Shown here: positions 2 to 18,185 of the stretch, piece by piece
Layout: the number at the start of each line of letters is the position of its first letter
Numbering within the stretch: position 1 is the stretch's first letter
From: Candidatus Nitrospira inopinata
Lineage (GTDB): Bacteria; Nitrospirota; Nitrospiria; Nitrospirales; Nitrospiraceae
Direction of reading: 5' to 3'
DNA: 32,000 nt
NCBI RefSeq assembly: GCF_001458695.1
Contig: NZ_LN885086.1
Span: 2,910,001-2,942,000 of the forward strand
The notes under the pieces: generated by a model
What the model was told of the DNA's origin: nothing
The model's database searches: none
What the model saw: only the letters and a program-made list of their open reading frames with translations
Made by a program: the position numbers and the translations under genes

Positions 2-1498
2 TTTAGCGCGGACGGCCAGACCCATCGTTGGAACCCATTGGATGCGGTCGATCGGGACCCGAATCGCCGTGTAGGTGAGATCCAAGCCATCGGGCAGGTG
101 CTCTATCCCACGGAGCAGATCAAAGACGCCTTTTGGAATGAGTCTGCCCGCAACCTCTACCTCGGCCTGACCCTCTCTATCATGGAGACTCCCTCCTTAC
201 CCTGCAGTCTCGGAGAAGTGCTCCGCCAGGCCTCCGGCAAGGGTCAGCCCATCAAGGACTATCTGCAAGACCTCATTGCCACCAGAGCCAAGAGTGACGC
301 CCCGTTGAGCGACGACTGTACGGCGGCCCTACACCGGTTCTGCGCCACCAGCGAGAATACGATGGCGAGCATTCTCGCGACCCTGACCGCCCCACTCACC
401 ATCTTCAGTAATCCCATTGTCGATGCGGCGACGAGTGCGACGGATTTCGACCTGAAACAGATGCGCGCGCAGCGGATGTCGATCTATGTCGGCATCCCCG
501 CCAATCGGCTCAGCGATGCGGCGCTGCTGGTCAACCTGTTCTTCTCCCAACTGATTCACTACAACACCGTCGACTTGCCCGCGACGAATCCCCGCTTGAG
601 GCACCAGTGCCTCGTGATCCTGGATGAGTTCCCTGCCCTCGGGCGGGTCAATATTCTCGCCAAGGCCGTCGGCTTCATGGCCGGCTACAATCTACGTCTG
701 CTCCCGATCATTCAGAGCCTCTCCCAGCTCGAATCGGTCTACGGGGAAAAGGACGCGCGCACCTTCGTCACGAACCATGCCTGCCAGATCCTCTTTGCGC
801 CTCGCGAACAACGAGATGCGCAGCACTATTCCCAGATGTTGGGCACCTATACGGCCGAGGCGATCTCGACCGGCACGAGCCGACCCCTCGCCTGGGGAAG
901 CGGTAAGCAGGCCTCATCCAGTTCCACCCACTCCGAACAAGCACGGTCTCTGCTGCTACCACAGGAATTGAAGGAACTGGGAGACCAGCGGGCGATCATC
1001 AACCTCATGCATACGAAGCCGATCCTCTGCGACAAGGCCCGCTTCTATGCCGAGCCGGTCTTCATCGATCGGTTGAAGCGCATCAGTCCGTTCCTTGCGT
1101 CGGTCGGGAAGCGGATGCCGACCCAAACGGAACTCGAAGAGGCGGCCTTTGTACGCCGAGAGCTGTCCGTGGAGATTCCCCGGCTCGATTTGGACCTCCA
1201 TCGCGCGAAGGTCGAAAGACGAGTGCGTCCAATACAACCAGATGAGCCGATGGACCTGTCGAAGCTGGCAATGGACCTCACCACCCTCCCGCCGGTCCTG
1301 GCGCACGACACACCGACGCCTGAAGAAGTGAACAATCTGGTCGATGCCTTTGTCGCCCAGCTGCAATGGACCGACAAGGTCGATGACGACATCTCAGAGA
1401 AGATGAGTTCCGTGAGGGAAGAAGGAAGAGCCCAGAGAACAGAGAGGAACGTTGATCGATCCTTGGTGGATCGAGACAGAGAAGAGAGGGACATATGA
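2..1498 (+). CDS. traG: Type IV secretion coupling protein (TraG/VirD4 family), 5'-truncated by the window edge
   Basis: The frame is open from position 2 (FSADGQTHRWNPLDAVD...). It has a Walker B-like motif LVILDEFPALGR and a conserved T4CP C-terminal region (QILFAPREQRDAQHYS, RSLLLPQELKEL). The stop overlaps the next gene's start (ATGA at 1495-1498). Confidence 0.85.
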   Translation, partial: FSADGQTHRWNPLDAVDRDPNRRVGEIQAIGQVLYPTEQIKDAFWNESARNLYLGLTLSIMETPSLPCSLGEVLRQASGKGQPIKDYLQDLIATRAKSDAPLSDDCTAALHRFCATSENTMASILATLTAPLTIFSNPIVDAATSATDFDLKQMRAQRMSIYVGIPANRLSDAALLVNLFFSQLIHYNTVDLPATNPRLRHQCLVILDEFPALGRVNILAKAVGFMAGYNLRLLPIIQSLSQLESVYGEKDARTFVTNHACQILFAPREQRDAQHYSQMLGTYTAEAISTGTSRPLAWGSGKQASSSSTHSEQARSLLLPQELKELGDQRAIINLMHTKPILCDKARFYAEPVFIDRLKRISPFLASVGKRMPTQTELEEAAFVRRELSVEIPRLDLDLHRAKVERRVRPIQPDEPMDLSKLAMDLTTLPPVLAHDTPTPEEVNNLVDAFVAQLQWTDKVDDDISEKMSSVREEGRAQRTERNVDRSLVDRDREERDI

Positions 1499-2472
1499 CG
1501 ACATCTATGAAAAGACAGGCGCGACTTCATGTGCTTGTGATTCTGATCGCCTGCACCACTACGCTGGCTTGTGTGCAGAAACCAGTCGTGCCATCCGGTG
1601 CGGCTCGCGTGCCCATCAACAGCGACGAGCTGATTCAGCAATACCGCGAGCGGGTGAAGAGCGACCAGCGCGAGAAGCAGGAGCGGAGTCTCCTCACCAG
1701 GCAGCTGGACAGCCTCACCCAACAGGTCCAGGAGTTGAATACCGCACTGACGCTCGTTCAACTCCAACAGCAAGAACTGGCCAAGGGCAAATCTCGGTTT
1801 AGCCCCACGATGACAAAAACAGCACTTACGAGCAACCCACTTTCCCCAGAGTCGAGAGGGCCACTGACGAACACCCCGCTACCCGGTGAAGGTGACAATT
1901 CTCCGTCTACCTCTGATCAGAGCCTGTCACGGACCGAGGCAACGCAGAGTGAAGAGGAGCGATCAACCTCGGTGGGGCCAGCTTGCAGCGCTGGACCATC
2001 AGCAGCACCATCCCCCTCCCCTCCACATCAGATACACAAAGAGCAGAACGGCTCGTGGAGGCCGCGCGTTGTTGAATTGAGTGAACGAGAACAGGTCGAA
2101 TTACATCACCACAGTATCATCTTCCGTGTGTCGGAACGGACAGGTCGGTCTGAGTTTCATCCCAGCAAGCCTCTGCAATCCCACCTGAAACAGATCATGA
2201 GCCGTGGTCCTTGCCTCCATGTGCGCGGGTACACGGACGGAGACAAGGATCTCTGGATCGAACGTGAGACAGCCAAGCAGCGGGCGTACAAGGCCCGCGC
2301 CTATCTCATCGCGCAGGGCTATGACGCAAACCACATCGAGATCACCATCGTCCCGATCGGGGAACATGTGGCCGACAATGCGACGAAGAAAGGTCGGGCA
2401 AAGAACCGACGGGTGGAGATTGAAGTGAAGGAGCAGAATCCGGCGTCCATCTGGCCACAATGGTACGGATAG
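1495..2472 (+). CDS. OmpA-family lipoprotein (peptidoglycan-binding C-terminal domain)
   Basis: ATG with an upstream purine-rich RBS. Lipoprotein signal VLVILIACTTTLAC. A low-complexity P/S-rich linker. C-terminal OmpA-like motifs VRGYTDGDKD...AKQRAYKARAYL...NRRVEIEV. Confidence 0.8.
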   Translation: MTTSMKRQARLHVLVILIACTTTLACVQKPVVPSGAARVPINSDELIQQYRERVKSDQREKQERSLLTRQLDSLTQQVQELNTALTLVQLQQQELAKGKSRFSPTMTKTALTSNPLSPESRGPLTNTPLPGEGDNSPSTSDQSLSRTEATQSEEERSTSVGPACSAGPSAAPSPSPPHQIHKEQNGSWRPRVVELSEREQVELHHHSIIFRVSERTGRSEFHPSKPLQSHLKQIMSRGPCLHVRGYTDGDKDLWIERETAKQRAYKARAYLIAQGYDANHIEITIVPIGEHVADNATKKGRAKNRRVEIEVKEQNPASIWPQWYG

Positions 2473-2490
2473 GAGAGAGGAAGGGACACC

Positions 2491-3594
2491 ATGAATGAAA
2501 TAGGTGTAGACGAACCGCAAGAGACCAAGCGGGCCGATGAGCCGAAGCCTGCGGAAGGAATAAAGGACGAGGGTCCTGACCAACCAAGACTCAATCAACG
2601 TCGTGATGCCGCCGATTCCTTGCGGAAGCGCTTCATCGAAGCCGGCGAGCAATTCTATTACCGCACGGCGCCCGGTGAGCCCACGAAGATTGCGTTTACG
2701 GATCACGGGAGGCGCCTAGTCACGGAACATGAGGACCCAAGCGTCATTCAGGGGATGGTGCTCCGGGCGAAAGCCAAGGGTTGGACCACCGTGCGGGTGA
2801 ACGGCACCCCTGAGTTCAAAACGGAAGCCTGGGTGCAAGCGACGATCACCGGACTCGATGTGGAAGGCTATACGCCGCGTGGGATCGACTTAGCGCGAGC
2901 AGAAGACCGAAAAGATCACCGTCCGGTTCATGGCAAGACGGCACAGCACCCTGTCGATCGCGAAGCTTCGCATGATCGGGCGACTGATGATCATTTCAGA
3001 AGACCGGAAAAGACCTTGAGCGCCGGCCAACAGGTCGCGGTGGCTACACTTGAAGCCATTCTGAAGGCGCGGGGAGATTCTCCCACCATGATCGCTGCGG
3101 CCGTCGAGGAAGCGAAGGCGCGTTTGCAGGGTGAACGAGTCGTGGTGGGTACCGTCGTGGACCATGGTATCGATCACTACAACCACGATGTCCAGAACGC
3201 CAAGAGCCATTTCGTGAAGGTGGCGACAGACCGTGGTGAACAAGAGATCTGGGGCGTCGACTTGGGCCGCGCGTTTGAACAGGGGAAGGTGCAGCGCGGT
3301 GATGCAGTTGCGTTGGTGCAACAGGCCCATGAGCCAGTGACCGTCAAGGTCCCGGTACGGAATGATTCTGGTACATCAATCGGGACGGTTTCACAACCAG
3401 CGACTCGCAATCGCTGGGAGGTCATTAGACTGGACTCCATCGGGGTCCGTGAACAGCATCAACTGAAAGATGCCACACGGGTCGCAACTCAGGAGCCCGT
3501 GGTGCCGCGCTTTGACCACGCGGCGGCCCGAACCGATCGCACGCCGAATGTCACCAGGAGCCCTGTCTTAGAGCGGACCAGAGGTGGCCGGTGA
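2491..3594 (+). CDS. Conjugative-element protein with an LPD7-like (large polyvalent protein-associated) domain and a KfrB-like C-terminal domain
   Basis: Strong RBS aggagagaggaaggg before the ATG. The block FTDHGRRLVTEHEDPSVIQGMVLRAKAKGWTTVRVNGTPEFKTEAWVQATITGLDVEGYTP matches my memory of LPD7. The later block HFVKVATDRGEQEIWGVDLGRAFEQGKVQRGDAVAL resembles KfrB-type repeats. The family names are unverified. Confidence 0.65.
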   Translation: MNEIGVDEPQETKRADEPKPAEGIKDEGPDQPRLNQRRDAADSLRKRFIEAGEQFYYRTAPGEPTKIAFTDHGRRLVTEHEDPSVIQGMVLRAKAKGWTTVRVNGTPEFKTEAWVQATITGLDVEGYTPRGIDLARAEDRKDHRPVHGKTAQHPVDREASHDRATDDHFRRPEKTLSAGQQVAVATLEAILKARGDSPTMIAAAVEEAKARLQGERVVVGTVVDHGIDHYNHDVQNAKSHFVKVATDRGEQEIWGVDLGRAFEQGKVQRGDAVALVQQAHEPVTVKVPVRNDSGTSIGTVSQPATRNRWEVIRLDSIGVREQHQLKDATRVATQEPVVPRFDHAAARTDRTPNVTRSPVLERTRGGR

Positions 3595-3640
3595 CTCATG
3601 TCGTCGAGAACATGTCCCCGAATCGTACGGAGGTGAGCCC

Positions 3641-3919
3641 ATGAATTGGTGGAAGAGACGCGACTGGATCATGGTCCTTGTGGGAGTGGGCCTCCTCGTC
3701 ATGGCCCACGATGCACCGGCACAAACGGCGCCCAAAATATCCTTCTTGGAAGGCGACGCCAGGCTGGCCTGTGAATGTCTGCTATGCTTAGCAGCGGGCC
3801 CCCAGGCGCCGAAAGAATGTCAAGCCGCGCTCACCAAGTACTACATGATCCAGGCAGGGAGCCCCTTCAAAACCATGGTCATGCGAAGAAACTTCCTACA
3901 GCTCTGCCCCAAGCAATAG
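3641..3919 (+). CDS. TrbM/KikA/MpfK-family conjugal transfer protein (small secreted Cys-rich protein)
   Basis: ATG at 3641 is preceded by the RBS ggaggtg. Signal peptide WIMVLVGVGLLVMAHDAPAQ. Family-typical motif GDARLACECLLCLAAG...ECQAALTKYY...RRNFLQLCP. Confidence 0.75.
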   Translation: MNWWKRRDWIMVLVGVGLLVMAHDAPAQTAPKISFLEGDARLACECLLCLAAGPQAPKECQAALTKYYMIQAGSPFKTMVMRRNFLQLCPKQ

Positions 3920-4292
3920 TCCATTCAACAGGACTTCTAGCTATCAGCACGGCGCCTCCGGACGTGTGCCACAGAGTAGCCCTCGCCAAGGACAAGCCTC
4001 TCTCCCCAAATGCCGTTTTTGTACGCCTACGCTACGGTTAAATTACATACTAGTGTTAACTATTTCGTTATTTATACCTCATTAGTGCTACAGACTTAAA
4101 TTTTCCCCTCTTGCGTAGAATACCTCCTACCTCAAGGGGATGGTCTCAAAACCTGGTCTTCCTCATAAGTACCACGGCGCCACGCGCCTCCCGCATCTGC
4201 TGTCTGGGCCACGACACGGAGCAGAGGGGCGCTCGTGTGGCGCGAGGATTCCCGAGTCAACACCTATCGGAGGAAAGGAAGGACGCACCATT

Positions 4293-4925
4293 ATGCAGAA
4301 AGATCGATTAGCGACACTCACGATGGACATTGTCGTCAACCATCCAACTAAGCGCACGGCCCTCGACGCAGCCTATAGTCGGCTCAGTCCCTGGGCACAG
4401 TCCGAGTGGGACAGCGCAAGTGATGGCGTGTCCATCACCGAACGAGCAGCCCGCCTTGATCACTCGATCCGGGAACAGCGTCGCTGCGACGAGAGTCTGA
4501 TCGAACACATCTTTGCTGCCCTTAATGGACGAACTTTCGTGGTCCTCGACGCCACCTATTGCTTCATGACGCAACGGATGCTGGACCGGAAGACGGGACG
4601 CCGTATCCCTCCTGACGCGGTTCGGCGCTTTGCGTCACAACCCATCGCGAGTCTGCTCCTCAGCGCCCGCGCGCACCAGGATCTGAATCGGCGGGGCATC
4701 GACACGATCGGCGACCTCCTGCCCCATGCCTATGAATGGTTATCGCCGAAGCGCTTAGCACCGGGCAAACCGGTGATGAACGTCCGGCTTTCGGTGCGAC
4801 GTTGTCTACGGATTCTCGGCGTGGAGATTGTCTTTCCCGAGATCAGACAGCGGGCAATCTATTGCCCCTGCTGTGCGCACACCGAGACGGATGTGATGAA
4901 GATCGTCGCCTTGGCGGGTGTATGA
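4293..4925 (+). CDS. Hypothetical protein with an RpoA-alpha-CTD-like helix-hairpin-helix segment and a C-terminal CPCC motif
   Basis: ATG at 4293 is preceded by the RBS ggaggaaaggaagg. The segment IASLLLSARAHQDLNRRGIDTIGDLL resembles the alpha-CTD HhH (L.LS.R..N.L...GI.T.G.L). No other recognisable domain. Confidence 0.6.
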   Translation: MQKDRLATLTMDIVVNHPTKRTALDAAYSRLSPWAQSEWDSASDGVSITERAARLDHSIREQRRCDESLIEHIFAALNGRTFVVLDATYCFMTQRMLDRKTGRRIPPDAVRRFASQPIASLLLSARAHQDLNRRGIDTIGDLLPHAYEWLSPKRLAPGKPVMNVRLSVRRCLRILGVEIVFPEIRQRAIYCPCCAHTETDVMKIVALAGV

Positions 4926-5326
4926 GTCACTGTTGGAAAGATGCAATCATGTGGAATTCCTACGAGGCCGCGAAGAACGAGCAGAGCCATACACCAACAT
5001 TGTGGAAGAACTATAAGAGATACGGGAAGATCCTGTGGAACTGGTGAAAGACGCGGTGAAGGAACACCGCGGCGCGTATGTCTTGGGCATTACCGCAGCG
5101 AAGGGAATGCGTCTCTGACGATTCAAGCAGTACGGGATGCGCTACAGGTCGCGGACATATAAGCGTTGCCAGTTCCGTTTTGATTCGTCCGAAAGCATAG
5201 TTTAGAAGGCACCATCATCGCACACCAGTTATTGAATCACGTCGCATAATCTACTCGTTGAGCTGGACAGCACCTCCGTCCGGGAAGGGCCCAAGGCGGG
5301 GTGCGATTTTCGGAAGGTCATTCCGT

Positions 5327-6253
5327 TTACCGCTGCACCGGTTGCTGCTGCCGATGCAGGAAGTCGGCGGCGCGTTGCGCATGGGCTGCGGCGCGGAAGA
5401 TCGCGCACTTGTCGTTCTTCAGGACGGTGAGCCAGTGCGCGATATACGAAGCGTGATCCTCGCGCGGTGTCAAGGACAGTTCGAGGTCGGCGCACAGGAA
5501 GGCCGCACCCAGCTCAGCGACAAGTTCTTCCTCGGCATAGCCTTCGTCGCCCCATTTCTTTCGCCCGAACTCACGGGCCAGGCGCGAGGGGTGTTTGGTC
5601 CAATGCGTAGATTCATGAGCAAGAGTCGCGTAGTAACTGCCGGCGTCGGTGAACGCCTCGAACGGCGGCATCTGGATGTAATCGGGCTCCTGCGCGTAAT
5701 ACGCCCGCGTCCCGCCGCGCCGGATGTCGGCCTGGAGACTGCCGAAGAAGGTTTCCGCGTGCTCAATGCGTTGTATCGGCGAAAAGCGCGGTTCCGGCTT
5801 GACGTAATAATGGGCGGGCAGACCCTCGACCTGCTCGACGTTAAAGACCGTGTAGCCCTTCATGAAGTGGATTTCACGGTCGATTTCTTCGCCGGTTTCA
5901 CCATCGGTTTCCTTGCGCGTGATTGAATTCGCATAAACGACGAGGGAGCCTTTCTCGCCCTTGCGGACATGCGCGTTCAGCTCCAAGGCTTGCTTAAATG
6001 TCATCCAGATGGGGGCCGCGAAGCCTCCGGCCACGGCAGCGCTCCATAACATCAGGATATTGATGCCGGAATAGGGCACGCCATTGTGCCGCAAGGGGCG
6101 AGTGATCTTGCCTGCGGCGTGTTCAGCGTTCCACGGCTTCACCCATGTACGGACGCCCCGTTCAAGATCAGCCACAATTCGGTCGGTGACGCGGGTATAC
6201 ACGTCCTGCCGCGTGATCCCGTCTTTGTGATGGTTGCCGGTGCTGGTGTTCAT
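5327..6253 (-). CDS. ardC: ArdC-like antirestriction protein (N-terminal ssDNA-binding domain plus zincin metalloprotease domain)
   Basis: ATG at 6253 with the RBS aaaaggagga. N-terminal block VYTRVTDRIVADLERGVRTWVKPW...RPLRHNGVPYSGINILMLW. C-terminal HExxH site in YYATLAHESTHWTKH and the acidic block YAEEELVAELGAAFL. Confidence 0.85.
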   Translation of the reverse strand: MNTSTGNHHKDGITRQDVYTRVTDRIVADLERGVRTWVKPWNAEHAAGKITRPLRHNGVPYSGINILMLWSAAVAGGFAAPIWMTFKQALELNAHVRKGEKGSLVVYANSITRKETDGETGEEIDREIHFMKGYTVFNVEQVEGLPAHYYVKPEPRFSPIQRIEHAETFFGSLQADIRRGGTRAYYAQEPDYIQMPPFEAFTDAGSYYATLAHESTHWTKHPSRLAREFGRKKWGDEGYAEEELVAELGAAFLCADLELSLTPREDHASYIAHWLTVLKNDKCAIFRAAAHAQRAADFLHRQQQPVQR

Positions 6254-6984
6254 GATGTCCTCCTTTTCGATGTTGATGTTGGCTCTCTCACGAAAGCTGG
6301 AGAGCCAACTCAACCCGGCAGGAGAAAAGGAGGACGGCGCGAGCTGAACGGCGGGCGTGCCGGAGGGACCGATTTGCACAGGGTCAACCGTGACAGAGCT
6401 GCTTCAGCTCTGGCGCGGCCCGTGCGGGACCCCCGGCTGAAAAGCCCGCGGGGGCTGCTCGCACATCAGCACCAGGCGAACCGCATAGGAGGACAGGATT
6501 AGAAAAGATGAATCTCAGCCTGAATGAGAGGGAATAAGGGCAGCCAAAACGGCGCCAAGCAGATCGAAAGCCGTCTTTTCGTTCGATTTTTTGCACGGGT
6601 GGCGCTATAAAGGCAGGGCATCGGCTCAGGAAATGGGTTGATTTGCGATTTAGCAGTAGATCATCCAATACCCACACTGGATTTAAGGGAAAGCAGCTCG
6701 TTTATACCCACTACCTGACAGTTCCTTTCCGGCAGCTGAACGTGGATGCGAAGAAATCTTTCACGAAAGGCGAGAAGACAAGTCCTGTTAACCGAGTACC
6801 ATGAAACTGCTATGTCGCAGGGTACGGTCGACCTGAAGGACGGAAAGAGTCATGCTCTTTCGTTGACCATCTTGAAGGAAGGGGATTAGCGGGAGACTTA
6901 TAATCAGTTGAAGGGGGAGTACGCGCTTGTCTAGGAAGAGAGCCTTGATAATGGCTGTAATCGGACAGGTCGCATTCTGGTGAG

Positions 6985-8424
6985 ATGGAGAACCGCACAG
7001 CGATTTTCATCAGTCACGCCAATCCTGAGGACAACGAGTTTGCAATATGGCTCGGCGCTCATCTTAGCGCGGCAGGATATGAAGTGTGGGCTGATGTTCT
7101 CAAACTTCGCGGCGGAGAAGATTGGGCCCGGAAACTAGAGAAAGCTATGCGGGAAAACGCGCGCAAGGTGCTCCTGGTTGGAACAGCCAGCGGAGTTGAA
7201 AAACAGGGGGTTCGGAATGAAATTCAAATTGCGAGCGAAGTAGCGCGGATTATCCGCGATGACGCTTTCGTGATCCCTCTCAGACTTGAACCTTATCAGT
7301 CGCCCTTCCAGATTGTTCAGGCTCAATTCATTGATTTTATGAACGGGTGGGGCCAGGGACTGAGCTGCTTATTAGAAACGCTGGAAGGGTATAGCATCCC
7401 GCGGCATGAATCTATCCACGAGGAAAGTGTTCAGAACTGGCGAGGAGTCCAGCTAGCCAAATCGCGAACGATTCAGCAAGTACCTCAAACGCTGATTTCC
7501 AGCTGGCTGCGGATAGTCGAATGGCCTAATGCCATCAGATATTATGAGTTCCAGGGAACTGGAGCTGAAGATCAGGCGAAAGCGCTTTCAGCGCAGTCTG
7601 CATGGCCGATAAGTCTCTTTGGACGAGGATTTTTCGCCTTTGCCGACATCCAGAATTTCATCTGCGGTCAAGATGGCACGCCGCGACTATCACAGGAAAA
7701 GCAATGGTGGGTTCCACACTTCCTTGACAATGGTGATCAGGACAGGAGGATTGGCAAGCGAGAGGCAGAGAATATCGTTAGCAATTTAACGAAATTGGCG
7801 GTGGAAAAGAAACTAAGTGATAGCCAATTGGCACGCTATGATTTATCCGCAGGTGTTTCGGCGTGGTGGGTTCCAACAGGCCTAATTGCCGATGAAAAAG
7901 TGTCTTTCAAATGGCAGGAAGGTCCCTCAGGAAGGAGAAATCTGACTGGAGAAGTAACTTCAGGAACCAGAAAGCACAAATGGCATTATGGCATCTCTGT
8001 AAAGCCTAGGGTAAGCGACAACCCTCATGTGAAAATCATTTCCAGGGTCATCTTCTCAGAAGATGGCCTTATGGCCCTGGATGACGCCAAGGCGATGCAC
8101 CGCCTGCGACGTTCCGTTCCGAAATCCTGGCGGAATGATCGTTGGAGGGACATGTTACTGGCGTTCCTCTACTGGTTGGGCAAAGGAGAGCGACACATAG
8201 TTTTTTCTACAGGGTCATCATCGGGCATTAAGGTGGAAGTGCCGCCTATTTCTATGGTGTGCCCGGTTAGCATCAAGGCAGAAGAAACGGGAATGACTGA
8301 ATATATCGATGCAGAAGCCGATGATCCGGTTTTCGCCGCTAGCTTCGATGACGAAGACACTGAGGAAACTGAAAACGTGATCGAGTCAGATGATGAGGGA
8401 CGACCACTGCAGGGAAGAGATTAA
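6985..8424 (+). CDS. TIR-APAZ protein (SPARTA effector subunit; predicted NAD(P)+ hydrolase)
   Basis: N-terminal TIR signature AIFISHANPEDNEFAIWLGAHLSAAGYEVWADV. Candidate catalytic Glu E79 in GVRNEIQIA (codon 7219-7221). APAZ-like remainder with KWHYGIS...SWRNDRWRDMLLAFLYWL. Acidic C-terminal tail. The stop overlaps the pAgo start (TAATG). Confidence 0.9.
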   Translation: MENRTAIFISHANPEDNEFAIWLGAHLSAAGYEVWADVLKLRGGEDWARKLEKAMRENARKVLLVGTASGVEKQGVRNEIQIASEVARIIRDDAFVIPLRLEPYQSPFQIVQAQFIDFMNGWGQGLSCLLETLEGYSIPRHESIHEESVQNWRGVQLAKSRTIQQVPQTLISSWLRIVEWPNAIRYYEFQGTGAEDQAKALSAQSAWPISLFGRGFFAFADIQNFICGQDGTPRLSQEKQWWVPHFLDNGDQDRRIGKREAENIVSNLTKLAVEKKLSDSQLARYDLSAGVSAWWVPTGLIADEKVSFKWQEGPSGRRNLTGEVTSGTRKHKWHYGISVKPRVSDNPHVKIISRVIFSEDGLMALDDAKAMHRLRRSVPKSWRNDRWRDMLLAFLYWLGKGERHIVFSTGSSSGIKVEVPPISMVCPVSIKAEETGMTEYIDAEADDPVFAASFDDEDTEETENVIESDDEGRPLQGRD

Positions 8425-9950
8425 TGCAGCTGGATTTTGTCATTGAACCGAGGCTTGAATTCGCTTTCGGTCAAGAGGAGGAGTATCCGCGTGACGGACT
8501 ATTCCTGTTCGGCCCGATCAAGGATAGCGCGACGCCCGATATTATCCGCTATGGAGTGATTGGAACACGAGACGGGATACAACGTTTCAAAACCTGGTCA
8601 AGATCAGTAAGCGGCTATATCAAGCGGTTTTCTCCGAGAAAGAACCCTGACGCACAGCATCATACGTCTTTCCCTGGTTTCGAGAGTGTGTTCAGGGCGA
8701 AGTGGCCAGCAGAACCGTTGGCCGAAATCGAGGTATCCGAAACCGAGATCGAGAGAACGCTCAGGATTGCCAATCGCCATGAGGCGGTAAAGCGGGCGGT
8801 AGATCAGTACGTAAACAGGCTAATAGAGTTTTCAAAAAAGGAAGAGACCGAACCCGCTCTATGGTTCGTTGTAATACCGGAACTTGTTTATCGGCTTGGA
8901 AGGTCCACATCAAAAGTCAGCGCACAGGAAAGAGTACAAGGCGCTGTGCGAATCTCACGTCAAAGGGCAAGAGATATCCGTACAGCCCCGACTCTTTTTG
9001 GGGATGAGGAGGAAGAAGCGGAAGTGTATTTGTATGCGAAAAACTTCCGCAGGCAATTGAAGGCACGATTGCTAAAGGACAAGATTGTGACGCAGATCGT
9101 GCGCGAAACAACACTGGTCCCAGAAGATTTTAAGACTTCCTTTGGGAGCTACATGAGACGGGTCGAGGATCCCGCTACTATCGCCTGGAAGCTTTGCACA
9201 GCCGCCTATTATAAAGCGGGCGGAAAACCCTGGATTTTGTCGAACGTCCGGCCAGGGGTCTGTTATGTCGGATTGGTGTATAAGCAAACCGATCCTGAAA
9301 GCGAAGATCCCAATGCCTGTTGTGCAGCTCAGATGTTTCTATCATCCGGCGACGGGATTGTCTTTCGAGGCGCGGCCGGACCTTGGTACACCCCTTCAAA
9401 CAAGGAATACCATCTGGAGGAAGAACCCGCACGAAAGCTAATGGCTCTTGTCGTATCCGAATACCGGCGGCTTCACAATGAAGATCCGAAAGAACTTTTC
9501 ATCCATGGGCGCTCGAGATTTAACAGGGATGAATGGTCAGGTTTTTCCTCTGCTGTTCCGGCTACTACAAACCTAGTGGGTGTTCAGATTCGTGACGCAA
9601 AATACGAATTGAAGTTGTTTACACCGGGTAGATATCCGGTAGTTCGAGGGACAGCCCTCAAAGTATCAGATCGGGCAGCTTATTTATGGACCAGCGGTTA
9701 TATACCGAGATTGAACACATACCTCGGTCCGGAGACTCCAAACCCTGTATTCGTGCATGTTCAGAAAGGGGACTGCCCGTTGGATACGGTCCTCGCCGAC
9801 GTGATGCGACTTACAAAGCTGAATTTCAACAGCTGTCTGTTTAATGACCGCCTGCCTGTCACAATCAAATTTGCAAATGCAGTGGGAGAAATCCTGATTG
9901 CCGCGCCTCAAACGGAAGAACCAAAGCTACCCTTCAAATACTACATCTGA
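8424..9950 (+). CDS. Short prokaryotic Argonaute (MID-PIWI only, predicted catalytically inactive; SPARTA sensor subunit)
   Basis: 508 aa, too short for the N/PAZ lobes. MID pocket-like motifs NFRRQLKARLL, VTQIV and YYKAGGKPWIL. A PIWI region where the first catalytic Asp strand reads CYVGLVY. Ago-typical C-terminus FKYYI. Translationally coupled to the TIR-APAZ gene. Confidence 0.92.
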   Translation: MQLDFVIEPRLEFAFGQEEEYPRDGLFLFGPIKDSATPDIIRYGVIGTRDGIQRFKTWSRSVSGYIKRFSPRKNPDAQHHTSFPGFESVFRAKWPAEPLAEIEVSETEIERTLRIANRHEAVKRAVDQYVNRLIEFSKKEETEPALWFVVIPELVYRLGRSTSKVSAQERVQGAVRISRQRARDIRTAPTLFGDEEEEAEVYLYAKNFRRQLKARLLKDKIVTQIVRETTLVPEDFKTSFGSYMRRVEDPATIAWKLCTAAYYKAGGKPWILSNVRPGVCYVGLVYKQTDPESEDPNACCAAQMFLSSGDGIVFRGAAGPWYTPSNKEYHLEEEPARKLMALVVSEYRRLHNEDPKELFIHGRSRFNRDEWSGFSSAVPATTNLVGVQIRDAKYELKLFTPGRYPVVRGTALKVSDRAAYLWTSGYIPRLNTYLGPETPNPVFVHVQKGDCPLDTVLADVMRLTKLNFNSCLFNDRLPVTIKFANAVGEILIAAPQTEEPKLPFKYYI

Positions 9951-10131
9951 ACTAGCGGTTATTCAGCAATGCCGCCCGGCTCATCTTCAAAATCACCGGT
10001 ACTAAGCAAGGCAACACTTGAAGAATAAAATGTGTGCTTGAGCAGGACCGCTATGACGTGATGATGGTCTTAGGCGATTCCGAGAGCTACGACCGCCGCT
10101 GTGGTTGTGTTCCTATCATTGGTCGCTAGCT

Positions 10132-10295
10132 TAGAACCTATCTCAAAATTGATTTACGAGAAGATTGATGTCTAAAGGCGTAGCCATACGCATCGGAAAG
10201 GATCGCATTTGGCTGAAAATACGCGTGTTGGTTGCTCAGTATCACGGGTCTGCGCTCGTTCGGGACTTCGGGTTTCAATTTTGAGATAGGTTCTA
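10132..10295. repeat. Perfect 21-bp inverted repeat pair (tagaacctatctcaaaattga / tcaattttgagataggttcta) flanking a 122-bp spacer; a MITE-like or long-hairpin element
   Basis: The arms at 10132-10152 and 10275-10295 are exact reverse complements. The pair lies in the AT-rich gap between the convergent pAgo and relaxase genes. Confidence 0.7.
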
Positions 10296-10398
10296 GTCTC
10301 GCTTACTAGGCTGTTGAGCGCATTCCCGAACTGCTCGGCCTCTAGCATTCGCTGGGAGAGGCATTCTCTAACTGCGGGAAGGTACCGTGCGGATATTT

Positions 10399-11382
10399 TT
10401 ATCGTTCACGATCTTTCCCTCGGTCCCGCTCCGTCTCCGGAGTCCGGCCTCGTCCCTCCAGATAGCGGACGAGGTCCACCGCCAGTTGTCGGTCTTCGCC
10501 TCGATCGGATCGTGCTAACGTTCTCATGACTTGCTGATAGTGATGCATCACTTCCCGCCGTTTCCCCGGCATGTGCGTCTGCCGTTTTTGGCGATCCACG
10601 AGCTTCTCGCGGGTGGTGCGATCGCGGAGATGTTGGATTTTCCATCGTTCGTGCGTCGTGCGATGAATTCGGCTCGTCGTCGTGGCCTCAATGCCATGCT
10701 CCCGGAGGGCCTCCGCAAACCCCTCTCGCCAGCGTTGGAGATCGGCCTTTCTTGGATTCAAGCGAATCCCGTCGAGACCCGTGGCTTTGACCGTCAGGTG
10801 GACATGCGGATGCGGAGATGGATTCGGGTCCGGATCGGTCTCGAAGGTATGGAGCACCAGCGCGTACTGAAATCCTGAAAACTCTCGCGTCGCGAAGTCC
10901 CGTGCCGCGCGCTGCACCACCAGCGGATCGGTCCGTGTCGGCATGGAGAGGACGAGATGAAAGGCATCGCGCATGGTCGAATCCGCCGCGATCGGCATGC
11001 CGCCATCGCGCCATTCGGCTTTCAGATCAGCCACGGCCTCCTTCCCGAGAATCACTTGGCCATCCTGATCCTCGATCTCGAGTTGGCCATCACGCGAAAT
11101 GTAGGTGAGATTGTTCGAGATGCCCTTCATCCCTTTCGGCGCCCTGACGAGTTTCACCACCACTTGTGGCGCACGGCGGACCATGGCTTGCAGTTTCTGT
11201 CGGACATAATTCGCACGAGCCTGTCGGCTACTCAGCCGTCCGCCGGTACTCACAGGCTTGGCTGAGCCAAGAGGATTGCGCGTACTGCGACGCGGCCGTG
11301 GAAGGGTCTCCGTCGATATATTGAATAGCCGACTCCCCCACGCATCCAACTTCTCGTCGATGTGGCTGATTGGTGGTGTCAT
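10399..11382 (-). CDS. Relaxase/mobilisation nuclease (VirD2/MobA-like, MOBP/Q-type relaxase domain)
   Basis: The ATG overlaps the mobC stop (ATGA). Motifs VVVKLVRAPKGMKGISNNLTYISRDG, FHLVLSMP and the histidine triad region HTFETDPDPNPSPHPHVHLTV. Confidence 0.85.
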   Translation of the reverse strand: MTPPISHIDEKLDAWGSRLFNISTETLPRPRRSTRNPLGSAKPVSTGGRLSSRQARANYVRQKLQAMVRRAPQVVVKLVRAPKGMKGISNNLTYISRDGQLEIEDQDGQVILGKEAVADLKAEWRDGGMPIAADSTMRDAFHLVLSMPTRTDPLVVQRAARDFATREFSGFQYALVLHTFETDPDPNPSPHPHVHLTVKATGLDGIRLNPRKADLQRWREGFAEALREHGIEATTTSRIHRTTHERWKIQHLRDRTTREKLVDRQKRQTHMPGKRREVMHHYQQVMRTLARSDRGEDRQLAVDLVRYLEGRGRTPETERDRGKDRER

Positions 11383-11936
11383 TGGAGCTGCCAGCGCGCC
11401 ACCGTCCCGCGCAAGACATCGGAGACCTTATCGGTATGGGCTTGAATCACGCGGGAGAGTTCAGTGATCGCTTCTACCCGAAACGCGGAGCGGTTCTGGG
11501 GCCCGGTATTCAAGACCTTCGCAATCTGGTTCAAATTCCTTCCCAAGGCGAGGAGCTGTTGATTCGAGCGGGTCAGCGCGGCGAGTTCTGGCTGTCCCAC
11601 ATGCGGCTCCCCAGTCAACTTGGTGCGGATCATCGCGACCACCCAGGCCGTCGGCTGATAGCCCTCAAGCTGGGCACAGGTTCGCAGCGCGGTGAGTTCG
11701 GAGGGTGTCACATTCACTTTCATCCGGGCGGTGGCTCGCTCTCGTCGGCGAGTGACCCGCTGCCGAGGGGGAGCGGACTGTTTCCGATGCCCGTCCAGGG
11801 CCTGCCGTAAGACCTGCCGAAAGGCGTGGCTCGGTGTCACGGCCTGCTGCTGACACCAGGCCAGCCAGGGAGCTTTCAGCTCACCGAGATCCACCGTGAT
11901 CGTCGTGGTCCGTTTTTCAGAAGAGGCAGTAGGCAT
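11379..11936 (-). CDS. mobC: MobC-family relaxosome accessory protein
   Basis: N-terminal RHH-like segment KRTTTITVDLGELKAPW. Hallmark MobC motif LALGRNLNQIAKVLN. Located directly upstream of the relaxase and coupled to it. Confidence 0.85.
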   Translation of the reverse strand: MPTASSEKRTTTITVDLGELKAPWLAWCQQQAVTPSHAFRQVLRQALDGHRKQSAPPRQRVTRRRERATARMKVNVTPSELTALRTCAQLEGYQPTAWVVAMIRTKLTGEPHVGQPELAALTRSNQQLLALGRNLNQIAKVLNTGPQNRSAFRVEAITELSRVIQAHTDKVSDVLRGTVARWQLQ

Positions 11937-13151: not shown

Positions 13152-13580
13152 TTACGGGGACAGGATCTCGCGAACCGCGGTGCGGGCAAAGAAGCCCTGC
13201 TCTCGAAGCGTGGCAAGCCAGGCCCGGGCAAACTCCTTTAACTCCTGTTTCAGCGAGGGCACGACGTGCGTACGTCTGCCCGTCTCGTCATACCGATAGA
13301 CCTCCTGAACGATCCCCAGGTAGTCATTCCTGAAAGACACCGGTTCGGCTGCCGCGCCATCGGGTAAATTGTGAAACAGAAACACGATGTCGGGATCTCG
13401 CATGAGGTCGCCGTTCTGTTCGCCGTAATGGCACAATGACACAAGCCGGTATCCGTCTCCACTGGATCCAATCTCCTCGACCGAGAGTGGCATATAGCCC
13501 GGCACGGTTATACGCACCGCGCGTGCGCTGTTCAGCAATTGATTCAAATCCGTCGCAAAGGCTTGATACAGTTTCATCAT
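13152..13580 (-). CDS. Conserved hypothetical protein of conjugative elements (resembles DUF6908-type proteins; from memory, unverified)
   Basis: ATG with the RBS aaagga. Balanced composition. The block LCHYGEQNGDLMRDPDIVF is typical of a family I recall next to ArdC/ParB-type genes on ICEs. Confidence 0.65.
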   Translation of the reverse strand: MMKLYQAFATDLNQLLNSARAVRITVPGYMPLSVEEIGSSGDGYRLVSLCHYGEQNGDLMRDPDIVFLFHNLPDGAAAEPVSFRNDYLGIVQEVYRYDETGRRTHVVPSLKQELKEFARAWLATLREQGFFARTAVREILSP

Positions 13581-13643
13581 CGTGTTCCTTTCTTCAGGTG
13601 AAGGAAGCCCCCGGCGCGAGGGCCGGAGGCTTCCACACTGCGA

Positions 13644-13886
13644 TCAGCGTTCCGACCGCTCCGTGACCCAGAGTTTCGCCTGTTGGGCGACGACTAAGAG
13701 TGCTTCAAGGTCGGCCAAGCCGAAGGACTCGGAATTCTTCCAGACTCCATCCTGGCCCTTGTACGAGCGGGTCACGGTTACGTTGTAGAACGGACCATTC
13801 ATGCCCTCGTTCTTCCAGATGCTCGCCTTGATGCCGCTGCATCGAAGCGTGGTGACCGGCTTGGGTTTCTTGTCTTGAGGTGCCAT
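13644..13886 (-). CDS. Small hypothetical protein (80 aa)
   Basis: ATG at 13886 is preceded by the RBS aaaggagac. The sequence MAPQDKKPKPVTTLRCSGIKASIWKNEG...FYNVTVTRSYKGQDGVWKNSESF is protein-like. The longer tracked ORF start (14054) adds an R/P/G-rich, non-protein-like extension. Confidence 0.6.
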   Translation of the reverse strand: MAPQDKKPKPVTTLRCSGIKASIWKNEGMNGPFYNVTVTRSYKGQDGVWKNSESFGLADLEALLVVAQQAKLWVTERSER

Positions 13887-14493
13887 GTTGTGTCTCCTTT
13901 GGTTAGAGTTGATGTGTTGGCCTCTCACCAGGCGTGGAGGCCACACAGCGACGACAAAGGAGACAGAGAGGCCGCCGCCACCTGGCGGGCCGGTGGGCGC
14001 GAAGCGGAGGAATGACCGCAAAAGCCGACGCGATCGATCGCGGCGCGCGGGCATGATCGACGCAGCCCGCCGGTGGAAAGCCAGGGCGGAGGCCGGATGC
14101 GCACAGGCACCGGACCTGATACCACAAGCCGGCCCCGCTCATCACCAGCACGGCATGACAGAGCAGATTCAATGGACGAGGCGAGAAGGTCCTATTCAGA
14201 TAGACCGAAGCGATCAAGCCCATTCGCCACGGCGGAAGAGAGTCAACGAGTCGGCTTCGAGACGTTCTTGAGCTTGTTGCAGTTGTCGGCCAGCAGGCGA
14301 CGGCCTCATCCAGATGGTTGCTGAACGCAGTGGAATGCTGAACGGCTCTCGCGAGGCTGCCGGGTAACATCCTGTGAATGGCGGCGAGAGATGGTGGGGC
14401 AGGGTGTCCGTGTAGCCGCTGGGGTGAGATCATCATCAGCCGACAGCCCAAGCCAGAGTCGATGACGACTGCCAATGTATCGCGAACGGGGAT

Positions 14494-14522
14494 TTGACAA
14501 TTATACCTGTTCAGGTATAATT
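14494..14522 (+). promoter_or_regulatory. Consensus sigma70-type promoter (TTGACA-16 nt-TATAAT) overlapping a 24-bp palindrome; probable HigA operator
   Basis: ttgaca at 14494-14499 and tataat at 14516-14521. The palindrome aattatacctg-tt-caggtataatt spans 14499-14522. The ATG of the toxin gene is 7 nt after the -10 and has no SD. Confidence 0.6.
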
Positions 14523-14527
14523 TCCCC

Positions 14528-14905
14528 ATGGGGCGTCAGGAACGGCCGCTCGAATGGATTGGCAGTAGCTATAAAGATTTGATGGCGTTACCGGTTGCCG
14601 TTCGGCGATTCTTCGGGTACGCGTTGTCGCTGGCTCAGGCCGGCGATCAACATGATGATGCGAAGGTGCTCACGGGTTTCGGCAGCGCCGGTGTGCTTGA
14701 AGTGGTCGAAGACGACAGGAGCGGCACCTATCGAGCGGTGTATACCGTGAAGTTCAAGGAGGCGGTCTTCGTCCTGCATTGTTTCCAAAAAAAGAGTAAG
14801 CATGGTATCGCCACGCCGAAAGAGGATCTTGCCATCATCCGCGCCAGGCTGAAAGTGGCTGAGGCGCTGGCCAAGGAGCGACGACATGAAAAAACGAGTC
14901 ATTGA
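14528..14905 (+). CDS. higB: Type II toxin, RelE/ParE superfamily (HigB/Gp49-like, DUF891-type)
   Basis: 125 aa. Motifs PLEWIGSSYKDLMALP, RAVYTVKFKEAVFVLHCFQKKSKHGIATPKEDL. The toxin-first gene order overlaps a downstream XRE antitoxin by 20 nt. Confidence 0.8.
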   Translation: MGRQERPLEWIGSSYKDLMALPVAVRRFFGYALSLAQAGDQHDDAKVLTGFGSAGVLEVVEDDRSGTYRAVYTVKFKEAVFVLHCFQKKSKHGIATPKEDLAIIRARLKVAEALAKERRHEKTSH

Positions 14906-15221
14906 AGGGATTGAGGTCTTTCGCGGGTCTGGCAATGTCTTCGCCGACTTGGATCTGCCAGATGCCGATACGCTCCAGATCAAGACCGGGCTGGTGATCG
15001 AGATCCGGAGAGCCATTCGCCAACAAGGGCTGACCCAGCAAGCCGCGGCCACACGGATGGGGCTCACCCAACCGAAGGTCTCCAGCATGATGCGAGGGGA
15101 CTTCTCCAATGTGTCCGAACGCAAACTGATGGAGTGCCTGAATCGGCTCGGCTACGATATTGAAATCAAAGTTCGGCCAGCCTCCGCTCGCATCGGACAT
15201 CTGATGCTGGCGCTACCGTGA
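14886..15221 (+). CDS. higA: XRE-family HTH antitoxin (HigA-like)
   Basis: 111 aa. N-terminal GSGNVFADLDLPDA. HTH segment GLTQQAAATRMGLTQPKVSSMMRG. C-terminal KLMECLNRLGYDIEIKV is typical of HigA2-like antitoxins. Confidence 0.8.
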   Translation: MKKRVIEGIEVFRGSGNVFADLDLPDADTLQIKTGLVIEIRRAIRQQGLTQQAAATRMGLTQPKVSSMMRGDFSNVSERKLMECLNRLGYDIEIKVRPASARIGHLMLALP

Positions 15222-15621
15222 TTGTGGGACGTTGTCTCGCGAAGGTGATCGCGCTCCTGGAAAAGAACCGGACGTTCACTATCATTCCTGAGAGGAAGAA
15301 CCATCCCCCTCCTCCCCTTTCTTCACGAATACTGACGATTCAGCGCATCAGAACCCCAGGCGTCACGGGCGGCCTGTCGGGACTACAGATACCAATCACG
15401 GGATACGGCCTTGATGTCTCCCTTGAGGACCCGGGTTCGGGTCTGTAAGGAGAAAGTACGCCCTTTCGGGCATCCACTGCACCTGTTGTGTTTCACGAAG
15501 CAATTGCTGACCACTTGATTGATGGTCGAGTCGAGATCGAAGACACACGTTCGAGATACTCCAACGCCGCCTCGACGTTGTCATACCACAGGCGTTGCGT
15601 CACACCGTATAGATAGGAGTT

Positions 15622-15813
15622 GCAGCACGACGCGACGTTCGCCGTTCTTCGCCCCCGTGATGGTGTCCCACAATCCGCCCCTGGATCACCCTCGAAGAGC
15701 CGAGCCGACTATGAGCGAACTCAAACGCCTGACAGGCGCACCAACTTCTTTTCAACACGTTGCTGCGCCCCTCACTGACGCTGGGGGCGCAGCACATCAC
15801 CTGAGCCTGTGGC
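15622..15813. repeat. Copy A of a 192-nt diverged repeat ending in a GC-rich 11-bp hairpin (candidate structured RNA or element end)
   Basis: Shares the ordered blocks gcagcacgacg, tcgccgttc, gtgatg, gatcaccctcgaa-agccgagccgac-atga, ggcgcacc, aacac-ttg, the hairpin 15761-15794, and agcctgtggc with copy B. Confidence 0.6.
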
Positions 15814-15824
15814 AGGGCGTCCTG

Positions 15825-16043
15825 CTAATAGTATCCAGGCTGGCTCCGGCTATAAGGATCACGTTGTGAAGCCGGCGGAGGTTCGTCGTAACGATGCTGT
15901 TGGCCAGGCTGCGACGATCCCATATTAACGTTGTCATAGCCAGGCGCGGGGCGTTGCCGACCCGAAAAAGAATCATCGGCACAGCCAGCGATCATGGCAC
16001 CCGCCAGAAGGGCAAAGGGCAGCGCGCATAGAATACGAATCAT
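15825..16043 (-). CDS. Small lipoprotein (72 aa)
   Basis: ATG at 16043 with the strong RBS aaggagg at 6-nt spacing. Signal plus lipobox MIRILCALPFALLAGAMIAGC. P/Q/G/Y-rich mature part. Confidence 0.6.
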   Translation of the reverse strand: MIRILCALPFALLAGAMIAGCADDSFSGRQRPAPGYDNVNMGSSQPGQQHRYDEPPPASQRDPYSRSQPGYY

Positions 16044-16385
16044 ACGAAACCTCCTTCGTCATTCGGAATTATTACGATGCATTTCTCATCCAACCAGTCT
16101 GCTGTACGTACAGGATACCGCTACCTTACAAGCCTTCTTCAACCTGCGAAGAGTCACGTGATCATTTGAACTCAGCCAACTGGGGAAGTAAATTGGTGTG
16201 CCCCTATTTGTTGCCACGCATCGTCTTCTCAATTTTGCCATGCATCCCATCCACTGCGCAAAGGTAGATGTGCGAACTCATTTTCGGAAAGGATAAATGG
16301 GACGAGAATTGGCCATTCACCACTTCTCACAACGACGTCGCCGTAAGCATACAGCACCGCCATCTTTCTAACGTGGCACGGAGTG

Positions 16386-16577
16386 GCAGCACGACGTGTC
16401 ACTCGCCGTTCCTTGCCCCAGTGATGCTGCCCCTCACTCTGCTCTTCGATCACCCTCGAAAAGCCGAGCCGACCATGAACGGCCTCACACAGCGGATTGG
16501 CGCACCGACCTCTTCGTAACACATTGTTGCGCCCCTCACCGACACCGGGGCGCAACAGAATCCCCCCAGCCTGTGGC
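16386..16577. repeat. Copy B of the 192-nt diverged repeat (hairpin 16525-16557)
   Basis: Same block order and same overall length as copy A. The stem differs from copy A by one compensatory pair (C-G in A, T-A in B). Confidence 0.6.
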
Positions 16578-17154: not shown

Positions 17155-17195
17155 GCTTAGAAGGCTGATGCTCTATCCAACTGAGCTACGGGCGC
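17155..17195 (-). pseudogene. Truncated tRNA-Arg(UCU): 5' half only (acceptor 5' arm, D-arm, anticodon stem 5' arm and loop)
   Basis: The minus strand reads GCGCCCGTAGCTCAGTTGGATAGAGCATCAGCCTTCTAAGC. The following bases cannot pair with the anticodon stem. No T-arm or 3' acceptor arm follows. Confidence 0.7.
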
Positions 17196-17437: not shown

Positions 17438-17514
<77 letters not shown>

Positions 17515-17581
17515 ACGGTTTGACCACGCTGTTTGCTCCTTTTCCGTGCCAACCTGTGGCCACGGCTTCCGGGCTGCTTTT

Positions 17582-18175: not shown

Positions 18176-18185
18176 CGCGGCTCGA

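Follow-up and report, generated by a model that had tools for sequence, protein, structure and literature searches.

A 32,000-nt stretch of the Candidatus Nitrospira inopinata genome (contig NZ_LN885086.1; hereafter the window, whose numbering is used for all coordinates) carries adjacent genes for a TIR-APAZ protein and a short prokaryotic Argonaute (pAgo). The pair is an uncharacterised copy of the known short pAgo/TIR-APAZ (SPARTA) family, and a routine member of it. We consider it very probable (about 0.88) that the two genes encode a functional SPARTA of clade S2A, which would work in outline like the systems of Crenotalea thermophila (Crt), Maribacter polysiphoniae (Map) and Bacillales bacterium (Bab). 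Gene architecture, homology, fold, residue conservation, purifying selection and the position of the pair in a defence hotspot of an integrative conjugative element (ICE) support this assignment.

The gene pair

6985-8424, + strand: TIR-APAZ gene, open reading frame (ORF) with ATG start, 479 aa; WP_062486946.1 / CUQ67968.1 (exact-sequence match)
8424-9950, + strand: short pAgo gene, ORF with ATG start, 508 aa, MID and PIWI only; WP_062486948.1 / CUQ67969.1 (exact-sequence match)
8422-8426, + strand: TAATG stop/start overlap of both genes, seen in the sequence, with Shine-Dalgarno-like GGGAAGAG at ~8412-8419

The initial annotation of this region, made by a model from the sequence alone, had described two translationally coupled genes, and both the ORF list and the sequence reproduce them together with their overlap. 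Positions 8420-8429 read attaatgcag, so that the TAA stop (8422-8424) and the ATG (8424-8426) share one A; the purine-rich GGGAAGAG lies 5-12 nt upstream of the pAgo start codon. The TIR-APAZ gene is thus located directly upstream of a co-oriented pAgo gene with an overlap of 1 nt, the arrangement by which SPARTA operons are recognised. All motifs that had been pointed out are present in the translations, namely AIFISHANPEDNEFAIWL, GYEVWADV, GVRNEIQIA, KWHYGIS and SWRNDRWRDMLLAFLYWL in TIR-APAZ, and NFRRQLKARLL, VTQIV, YYKAGGKPW, CYVGLVY and the C-terminal KYYI in pAgo.

Both database entries belong to Candidatus Nitrospira inopinata (contig of 3,295,117 bp), and their RefSeq names are generic ('toll/interleukin-1 receptor domain-containing protein' for WP_062486946.1, 'argonaute/piwi family protein' for WP_062486948.1). 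In line with the earlier view that the locus is uncharacterised, no paper that we found mentions its RefSeq, GenBank or UniProt accessions or ties Nitrospira to SPARTA; the terms Nitrospira, Argonaute and TIR co-occur only in an unrelated 2013 survey of the HEPN superfamily, in a search that did not cover the list of 283 pAgos of Koopal et al. 2022. In every paper found with an experimental characterisation of SPARTA, the system studied is that of Crt, Map or Bab.

Homology and fold

Profile and structure-database searches assign both proteins to SPARTA. The PADLOC model Aga_TIR-PNTD1-PNTD2 matches TIR-APAZ with an E-value of 3.5e-150 (residues 3-451, profile positions 1-433 of 443), and Pfam TIR_2 is found at residues 7-126 (2.2e-21), in agreement with the TIR and APAZ domains that had been proposed for gene 1. 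The pAgo matches PADLOC pAgo_I from end to end (4.8e-211, residues 2-508). In phmmer searches against the Protein Data Bank (PDB), SPARTA chains were the best matches of either protein: 8ifk_A (1.1e-54, residues 4-460) and 8fex_A (1.2e-50) for TIR-APAZ, with alignments reaching residues 460/468, and 8ifk_B (1.2e-136) and 8fex_B (3.5e-133), both over residues 2-508, for pAgo. The best matches originate from C. thermophila (8ifk group), M. polysiphoniae (8fex group) and Bacillales bacterium (8qlo). Alignment to the Map and Crt pairs, which the initial annotation had named as references, is collinear over the full length of both proteins, and E79 of TIR-APAZ falls on the catalytic E77.

The pAgo scores 446-460 bits against SPARTA chains in the PDB, compared with 175 bits for SPARHA, 144-153 for SPARDA and 75 for SPARSA; judged by these bit scores rather than by a tree, it is nearer to S2A Agos than to other short-pAgo clades. 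The family is large: of the candidates scored, 3713 relatives of pAgo and 852 of TIR-APAZ reached E<=1e-5.

Structure prediction gave a congruent picture. The AlphaFold2 model of TIR-APAZ has a pLDDT of 78.8, and its top 35 Foldseek matches are SPARTA TIR-APAZ chains (E 2e-34); against APAZ-only chains the target-normalised TM score (TMt) is 0.77-0.80. For the pAgo model (pLDDT 80.8, pTM 0.82), Foldseek returned TM scores of 0.86-0.93 to SPARTA Agos at a root-mean-square deviation of 2.4-3.4 Å. The top matches of both models are exclusively SPARTA chains. That gene 2 encodes an Argonaute without N and PAZ lobes is borne out by these scores and by its collinearity with the Agos of Crt, Map and Bab (507 aa).

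Related short-Argonaute systems were considered and rejected. SPARDA, SPARHA and SPARSA share the short MID-PIWI plus APAZ module (Foldseek TM ~0.8 to SPARDA Agos) and the activation of an effector by guide-dependent oligomerisation, but their effectors are a DREN nuclease, HNH or SIR2, respectively, and not TIR, and their sequence scores are much lower (75-175 versus 450-460 bits). TIR is the sole effector domain here, and the PADLOC SIR2-type and other Aga models miss gene 1. Assignment to the Mrr-TIR-APAZ subclade, in which an Mrr/REase domain precedes TIR, fails since the TIR domain starts at residue 7 and the match to the REase-TIR model begins no earlier than profile position 155. A long, catalytically active pAgo is incompatible with 508 aa, missing N/PAZ lobes and an absent catalytic tetrad.

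Domains and residues of the TIR-APAZ protein

7003-7362, + strand: TIR domain, residues 7-126
7219-7221, + strand: codon (GAA) of the predicted catalytic Glu E79
7285-7338, + strand: shortened TIR DE-loop region, residues ~101-118
7420-7461, + strand: TIR-APAZ bridging helix, residues ~146-159
7462-8274, + strand: APAZ domain, residues ~160-430, collinear with Crt/Map APAZ
8275-8421, + strand: acidic tail at the TIR-APAZ C-terminus, residues 431-479, 49 aa

Residues described in the SPARTA papers were mapped by HMMER alignments, for the DE loop also by MAFFT, and their conservation was checked in the 119 TIR-APAZ and 128 pAgo nearest homologues from a large protein collection. The codon to which the initial annotation had assigned the catalytic Glu indeed reads GAA. 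The encoded E79 is invariant and corresponds to E77 of CrtTIR-APAZ and MapTIR-APAZ, the mutation of which to Ala kills the NADase activity of Crt/MapSPARTA (PMC9097488). Likewise, G44 and D46 of the BB-loop as well as R56 and G75 are equivalent to Map G42, D44, R54 and G73, and are either invariant or present in at least 118/119 homologues. The product of CrtTIR-APAZ is non-cyclic ADP-ribose (ADPR) (PMC9097488). Cyclising TIRs carry an aromatic residue where CrtSPARTA has G73.

The DE loop is the part of the TIR domain that deviates. It is 4 residues shorter than in Crt and Map, and Q109 and Q112 take the places of Map D111 and R114. Of the 119 homologues, 114 carry His or Gln at position 112 and the other 5 Arg. 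Y104, an aromatic residue near the adenine-stacking Y105 of Map, is Tyr or Phe in 118/119. When MapSPARTA carries the mutations R114Q, R114E or D111A, its oligomerisation and NADase activity are lost or greatly lowered (PMC10474274; PMC10899771). From the alignments, we read the DE-loop state as a probable co-evolved variant of the TIR-TIR interface rather than an inactivating lesion.

The region linking TIR to APAZ is modelled by AlphaFold2 as a helix (146-159) with W152 and L157 at the positions of Map Y154 and L159; the role of this bridging helix has been described for SPARTA (PMC10474274). Within APAZ, the basic helix at the channel entry is retained (R375, R376 and K380 for R361, R362 and K366). 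The protein ends in a tail in which 19/49 residues are Asp or Glu (~39%) and which AlphaFold2 renders disordered (pLDDT <50 at residues 433-479). Homologues have tails of similar character, with medians of 44 aa and 49% acidic residues, and such a tail is conserved throughout clade S2. In Crt, Bab and MapSPARTA an acidic tail plugs the nucleic-acid channel and autoinhibits the complex (PMC10899771 among others), and by analogy the tail is predicted to be an autoinhibitory nucleic-acid mimic.

The short Argonaute

9048-9215, + strand: MID 5'-phosphate pocket, R209 (9048-9050), K213 (9060-9062), Q224 (9093-9095), K264 (9213-9215)
9366-9422, + strand: PIWI sensor loop, residues 315-333
9936-9947, + strand: C-terminal KYYI of pAgo
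9276-9278, + strand: V285, at the first slicer Asp (TtAgo D478)
9507-9512, + strand: G362-R363, at the third slicer residue (TtAgo D546)
9876-9878, + strand: N485, at the fourth slicer residue (TtAgo D660)

The sequences that had been noted as resembling a MID pocket hold exactly the four pocket residues, R209 and K213 in NFRRQLKARLL, Q224 in VTQIV and K264 in YYKAGGKPW. They are equivalent to Crt H207, K211, Q222 and K263 and invariant in the 128 nearest pAgo homologues. With Arg in first place the pocket is of the RK type, one of the two canonical 5'-phosphate pocket types in short pAgos according to Ryazansky et al. (PMC6299218), and R209 aligns with R418 of TtAgo in hhalign. W321 of the sensor loop, the role of which has been shown in SPARTA (PMC10474274), corresponds to Map W320, and this Trp is invariant in the homologues. 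The interface residues between two pAgos (Y263, K505, Y506) are present as well. K505, Y506 and I508 of the C-terminus equal K504, Y505 and I507 of Map and Bab; a K[F/Y]YI motif terminates 125/129 members of the pAgo family. The I508 carboxylate is predicted, on these grounds, to be a ligand of the Mg2+ ion that binds the guide 5'-phosphate.

To locate the slicer positions, the 129-sequence pAgo family alignment was compared by hhalign with TtAgo 418-685, a query 100% identical to PDB 3dlb_A (E 1.2e-3, 235 columns). The first catalytic Asp, D478, falls on V285 in the CYVGLVY strand, which is the strand that the initial annotation had singled out as lacking it; Val occupies this position in 127/128 homologues. 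TtAgo E512 maps to about Y329, an approximate position in a low-confidence loop with E328 adjacent. D546 is met by R363 (or G362, with a shift of one residue) and D660 by N485, which is N or D in homologues. The strands 279-288 and 357-362 and the helix 479-491 of the AlphaFold2 model agree with these assignments. Asp and Glu are absent from all homologues at the positions equivalent to D478 and D546, and SPARTA experimentally cleaves no targets (PMC9097488). Taken together, the mapping of V285, ~Y329, R363 and N485, the lack of acidic residues at the D478 and D546 positions of homologues and the experimental precedent support the view that the slicer site is dead; the DEDX tetrad, an intact form of which had been named as a possible objection, is absent on alignment.

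Comparison with characterised and related pairs

Compared with Crt and MapSPARTA (PDB 8ifk, 8isy; 8fex, 8i87 and others), the pair has the same gene order and is similar in size (pAgo 508 aa versus 507; TIR-APAZ 479 aa versus 450-452). TIR-APAZ shares with them the catalytic Glu, the BB-loop G/D, the equivalents of R54 and G73, the bridging helix, the basic entry helix and the acidic C-tail, and pAgo shares the MID K-Q-K, the sensor-loop Trp, the interface Y/K/Y, the C-terminal KYYI and the lack of a DEDX tetrad. The first MID-pocket residue, however, is His in Crt, Map and Bab, and all solved SPARTAs are of the HK type. Apart from the DE loop, further differences are 13 extra residues in APAZ (~304-330), the loss of 7 residues from the flexible MID loop, a tail of 49 instead of ~33 aa, and the host and carrier, which are a nitrifier of the Nitrospirota and an ICE. 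BabSPARTA (PDB 8qlo, 8qlp) has the same architecture, and the residues of its tail channel and interface are mostly kept (R227, R245, K397, E437, Y263, K505, Y506); Bab R72, H251 and D133 are replaced by H80, T252 and E141, and the further differences are as for Crt and Map.

The closest relatives are uncharacterised SPARTA pairs of other Nitrospira (loci L001-L005, e.g. MEQ1679692.1 and plasmid CP060502.1). They belong to the same subclade, with identities of 80-95% for pAgo and 61-83% for TIR-APAZ, and show the same head-to-tail gene overlap. They too reside on mobile elements, with wholly different flanks: one set, from a conjugative element, comprises TrbM, HipA, PIN-MazE and an integrase, and the pair with the lower identities (80% and 61%; L004/L005) lies on the 273-kb plasmid CP060502.1. 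As a side observation, the latter is accompanied by a defence island of GmrSD, Fic, DUF3800, an Eco57I/XamI-type restriction-modification (RM) system and Gabija (OLD-TOPRIM ATPase and UvrD helicase). Since its nearest relatives occur in unrelated mobile contexts, the SPARTA pair behaves as a self-contained mobile defence module.

Selection

When compared with the orthologous pair of L001, from a Nitrospira metagenome-assembled genome, dN/dS amounts to 0.13 for TIR-APAZ and 0.037 for pAgo. Therefore, both genes are under purifying selection. The same comparison reveals that TIR-APAZ evolves far faster than pAgo (83% versus 95% amino acid identity, dN 0.105 versus 0.022), an asymmetry mirrored in the comparison with Crt and Map, where the identities are 30% and 45%.

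The pair occupies a variable cargo slot of an ICE

6450-10400, no strand: SPARTA-specific cargo segment, 50.0% GC versus 59.2% in the rest of the window
10125-10302, no strand: AT-rich element of 178 bp flanked by 28-nt inverted repeats, in the gap separating the pAgo stop from that of the convergent relaxase gene, within the cargo

The window from position 1 to ~17,400 is part of an ICE, with backbone genes at 38-4925 and 10399-~17200. The cargo segment between them has a GC content at third codon positions (GC3) of 51%, compared with 63-82% in backbone and chromosome. A relaxase-seeded scan of GTDB genomes yielded 79 loci that share this backbone, and almost all of them are Nitrospira. DNA homology to these loci stops at ~4925-4930, where a backbone ORF of 261 aa ends, and on the other side at the stop of the relaxase gene (~10399-10401). 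In locus L068 the ArdC region (see below) is also shared, through 6449, before the sequences diverge, and none of the 79 loci has a DNA match inside 6450-10400. A megablast search of 6500-10400 against PLSDB plasmids was likewise negative.

The interval 4930-10400, from the 261-aa ORF to the relaxase stop, is a variable defence-cargo hotspot of this ICE family. In the window it contains ArdC and the SPARTA pair. Among related elements, L034 has a CBASS cyclase and a CapH/CapP-like regulator in the slot, L017 a CBASS patatin effector, L014 a methylase (RM-like) with IetA/IetS, and L047 an AAA/Ppl-like protein with a Schlafen-domain protein; in L036 it is almost empty (1.1 kb). L055 has a different SPARTA in the slot, one with an HK pocket, a long DE loop and the Arg114 type. 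The location of the pair thus independently supports a role in defence. As ICE cargo, it likely shields host and ICE from multicopy elements, competing plasmids among them.

The 178-bp element behind the pAgo gene contains the perfect 21-mer TAGAACCTATCTCAAAATTGA on both strands, where 0 are expected by chance, and its predicted RNA fold has an energy of -66 kcal/mol (z -3.5). Neither the 84 loci examined nor the rest of the window contains a copy. A (bidirectional) terminator hairpin is one possible identity, and a scar resembling a miniature inverted-repeat transposable element is another.

Proposed mechanism and alternative explanations

On the model of the characterised systems (PMC9097488, PMC10474274, PMC10899771, bioRxiv 10.1101/2023.07.12.548734), we infer the following course, from the heterodimer and its guides to oligomers with NAD(P)ase activity. 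The two proteins would form a 1:1 heterodimer in which APAZ stands in for the N-lobe and the TIR domain is held on MID. The pAgo would load 5'-phosphorylated small RNAs from highly transcribed DNA, held by R209, K213, Q224 and K264 and by Mg2+ on the I508 carboxylate, and the guide would pair over at least 15 bp with complementary single-stranded DNA of a multicopy invader. Because the three acidic slicer residues are all absent, the Argonaute should be unable to cut this target. Instead, pairing would eject the tail, shift the sensor loop (W321) and bare the pAgo-pAgo interface, whereupon the heterodimers would oligomerise and their TIR domains build composite active sites. There, E79 would hydrolyse NAD(P)+ to ADPR(P) and nicotinamide. 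With G75 at the aromatic position of cyclising TIRs, a cyclic product is not expected. Depletion of NAD would lead to arrest or death of the cell, and thus to exclusion of the invader at the population level.

Several points weigh against this reading. No member of the subclade, this locus included, is characterised biochemically or genetically, and identity to the characterised systems is moderate, with 45% for pAgo and 30% for TIR-APAZ over aligned columns. The pAgo has zero matches in Pfam-A and NCBIfam, Piwi included, so that one check proposed with the initial annotation, a Piwi profile match, was negative with these libraries; since the PADLOC, PDB and fold searches are decisive, we ascribe this silence to limited library sensitivity. 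MapSPARTA protects little against the phages tested (PMC9097488), and the natural targets are therefore uncertain. The residues D111 and R114, which mediate TIR-TIR tetramerisation in MapSPARTA, are not kept. With the shorter DE loop and Q109/Q112, the oligomer interface must, as far as the alignments tell, differ in detail from that of MapSPARTA, a deviation that is mechanistic and not family-defining. Finally, a scan of 6300-10500 found nothing above shuffled expectation, with no sigma-70-like promoter upstream of TIR-APAZ (sigma-70 consensus only) and no clear intrinsic terminator directly after the pAgo gene.

The DE loop and the pocket also bear on the first alternative, a SPARTA-like system whose TIR assembly or signalling is unlike the Bacteroidota type in stoichiometry, threshold or interface, or whose guide preference is altered, for instance towards 5'-phosphorylated DNA as in TtAgo. 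The DE-loop deletion and the H/Q at the R114 position in nearly all homologues could be taken in this sense, given that R114Q and R114E inactivate MapSPARTA, and Koopal et al. noted possible functional differences among SPARTA lineages. Yet the pair keeps all features of the catalytic site, BB-loop, bridging helix, sensor loop, pAgo-pAgo interface and acidic tail, and interface residues often co-vary while the mechanism is unchanged. As regards the guide, the nearest pAgo homologues are RK without exception (128/128), Crt, Map and Bab are HK, and the Arg is shared with TtAgo (R418); the RK pocket is, however, a known canonical 5'-phosphate pocket of short pAgos. On balance, we regard such a departure as unlikely, although it deserves to be kept in mind.

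Far less probable is that the genes are intact but decaying or silent cargo that has lost its expression or activity in N. inopinata. The missing promoter-like site fits this idea, as do the aligned sequences upstream of the pairs in the window and in L001, L002 and L004, which share no conserved element, the atypical GC content that marks the segment as foreign, and a Gln where the same change kills MapSPARTA. On the other hand, the promoter scan was limited to the sigma-70 consensus, the Gln/His state is subclade-wide and not a private lesion, neither ORF is shortened and both align collinearly with active homologues, the catalytic residues are all intact, and the dN/dS values speak for strong purifying selection. 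Thoeris-like signalling, in which TIR would not deplete NAD but would signal to a separate effector through a cyclic or isomeric ADPR, is scarcely credible: the TIR matches to ThsB, Thoeris and SAVED-TIR are weak (PADLOC E 0.027 to 2.4e-5) and that to NCBIfam ThcB4 (1.9e-4) lies far below the cut-off, there is no ThsA-like or other effector gene in 6450-10400, G75 and the non-cyclic product of CrtTIR-APAZ argue against cyclisation, and the best full-length matches are APAZ-fused SPARTA proteins, so that Thoeris was rejected.

Significance

With SPARTA as the preferred reading, the locus adds little of practical use, as it fits a system that is mechanistically well understood, has about 40 solved structures in the family and would be called automatically by standard defence-finder profiles of the PADLOC type. 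Its subclade, on the other hand, is populous and not represented by any solved SPARTA in the PDB copy searched, and could therefore serve to test the generality of the published TIR tetramer interface. We entertain, tentatively and with more doubt than confidence, the idea of a large SPARTA subclade (RK pocket, short DE loop, H/Q for Arg114) whose TIRs possibly use a different interface, oligomeric state, threshold or guide preference, and which here would act as an ICE-borne anti-plasmid weapon. A complete and selectively maintained SPARTA in a complete-ammonia-oxidising Nitrospira concerns organisms that are environmentally important and hard to manipulate genetically, and an anti-plasmid system depleting NAD bears on the introduction of replicating plasmids into such Nitrospira. 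Moreover, the defined slot, in which related elements swap SPARTA, CBASS, Iet and RM-like modules, illustrates how conjugative elements exchange defence genes in nature.

ICE backbone and neighbouring genes

38-1498, + strand: coupling protein of a type IV secretion system, ICE
2491-3594, + strand: LPD7 protein, ICE
4140-4925, + strand: 261-aa backbone ORF, with a weak sub-threshold RNA_pol_A_CTD match only
5327-6379, - strand: ArdC anti-restriction protein, ArdcN and zincin metallopeptidase domain, adjoining the SPARTA cargo
10399-11382, - strand: MOB relaxase, ICE
11379-11936, - strand: NikA/MobC, ICE
13152-13580, - strand: DUF6908, ICE
14528-15221, + strand: overlapping Gp49/HTH_37 toxin-antitoxin-like pair (Gp49/HigB-like PF05973, 1.5e-23; HTH_37/XRE, 4.5e-27)
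17438-17514, - strand: tRNA-Pro(UGG), with the ICE abutting the tRNA 3' end

ArdC lies beside the SPARTA genes, so that one slot holds an ICE counter-defence gene and a defence system. The GTG start of the listed ArdC ORF is situated well upstream of the conserved domain; therefore, the true start may be an internal ATG.

At its end near position 17,400, the ICE borders on tRNA-Pro, the only Rfam match in the whole window at gathering thresholds. Housekeeping genes follow beyond it (Ham1, RNase PH, metH, a HemN-like radical SAM enzyme, and a protein with an FGE-sulfatase domain of the sulfatase-modifying factor type). No integrase was found among the ORFs of 13500-18200 next to the tRNA gene; the ICE integrase is presumably encoded at the opposite end, outside the window.

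Near the tRNA end, the ICE contains an ORF-poor stretch of ~2 kb (15250-17200), the DNA of which is conserved in many related Nitrospira ICE loci. Rfam gave nothing at E<=0.1 in 15200-17440. The stretch may be an att site, an oriT or a regulatory region, or may code for a non-coding RNA. It includes a direct repeat of 171 nt (15616-15786 and 16380-16550), the two copies of which are 78% identical.

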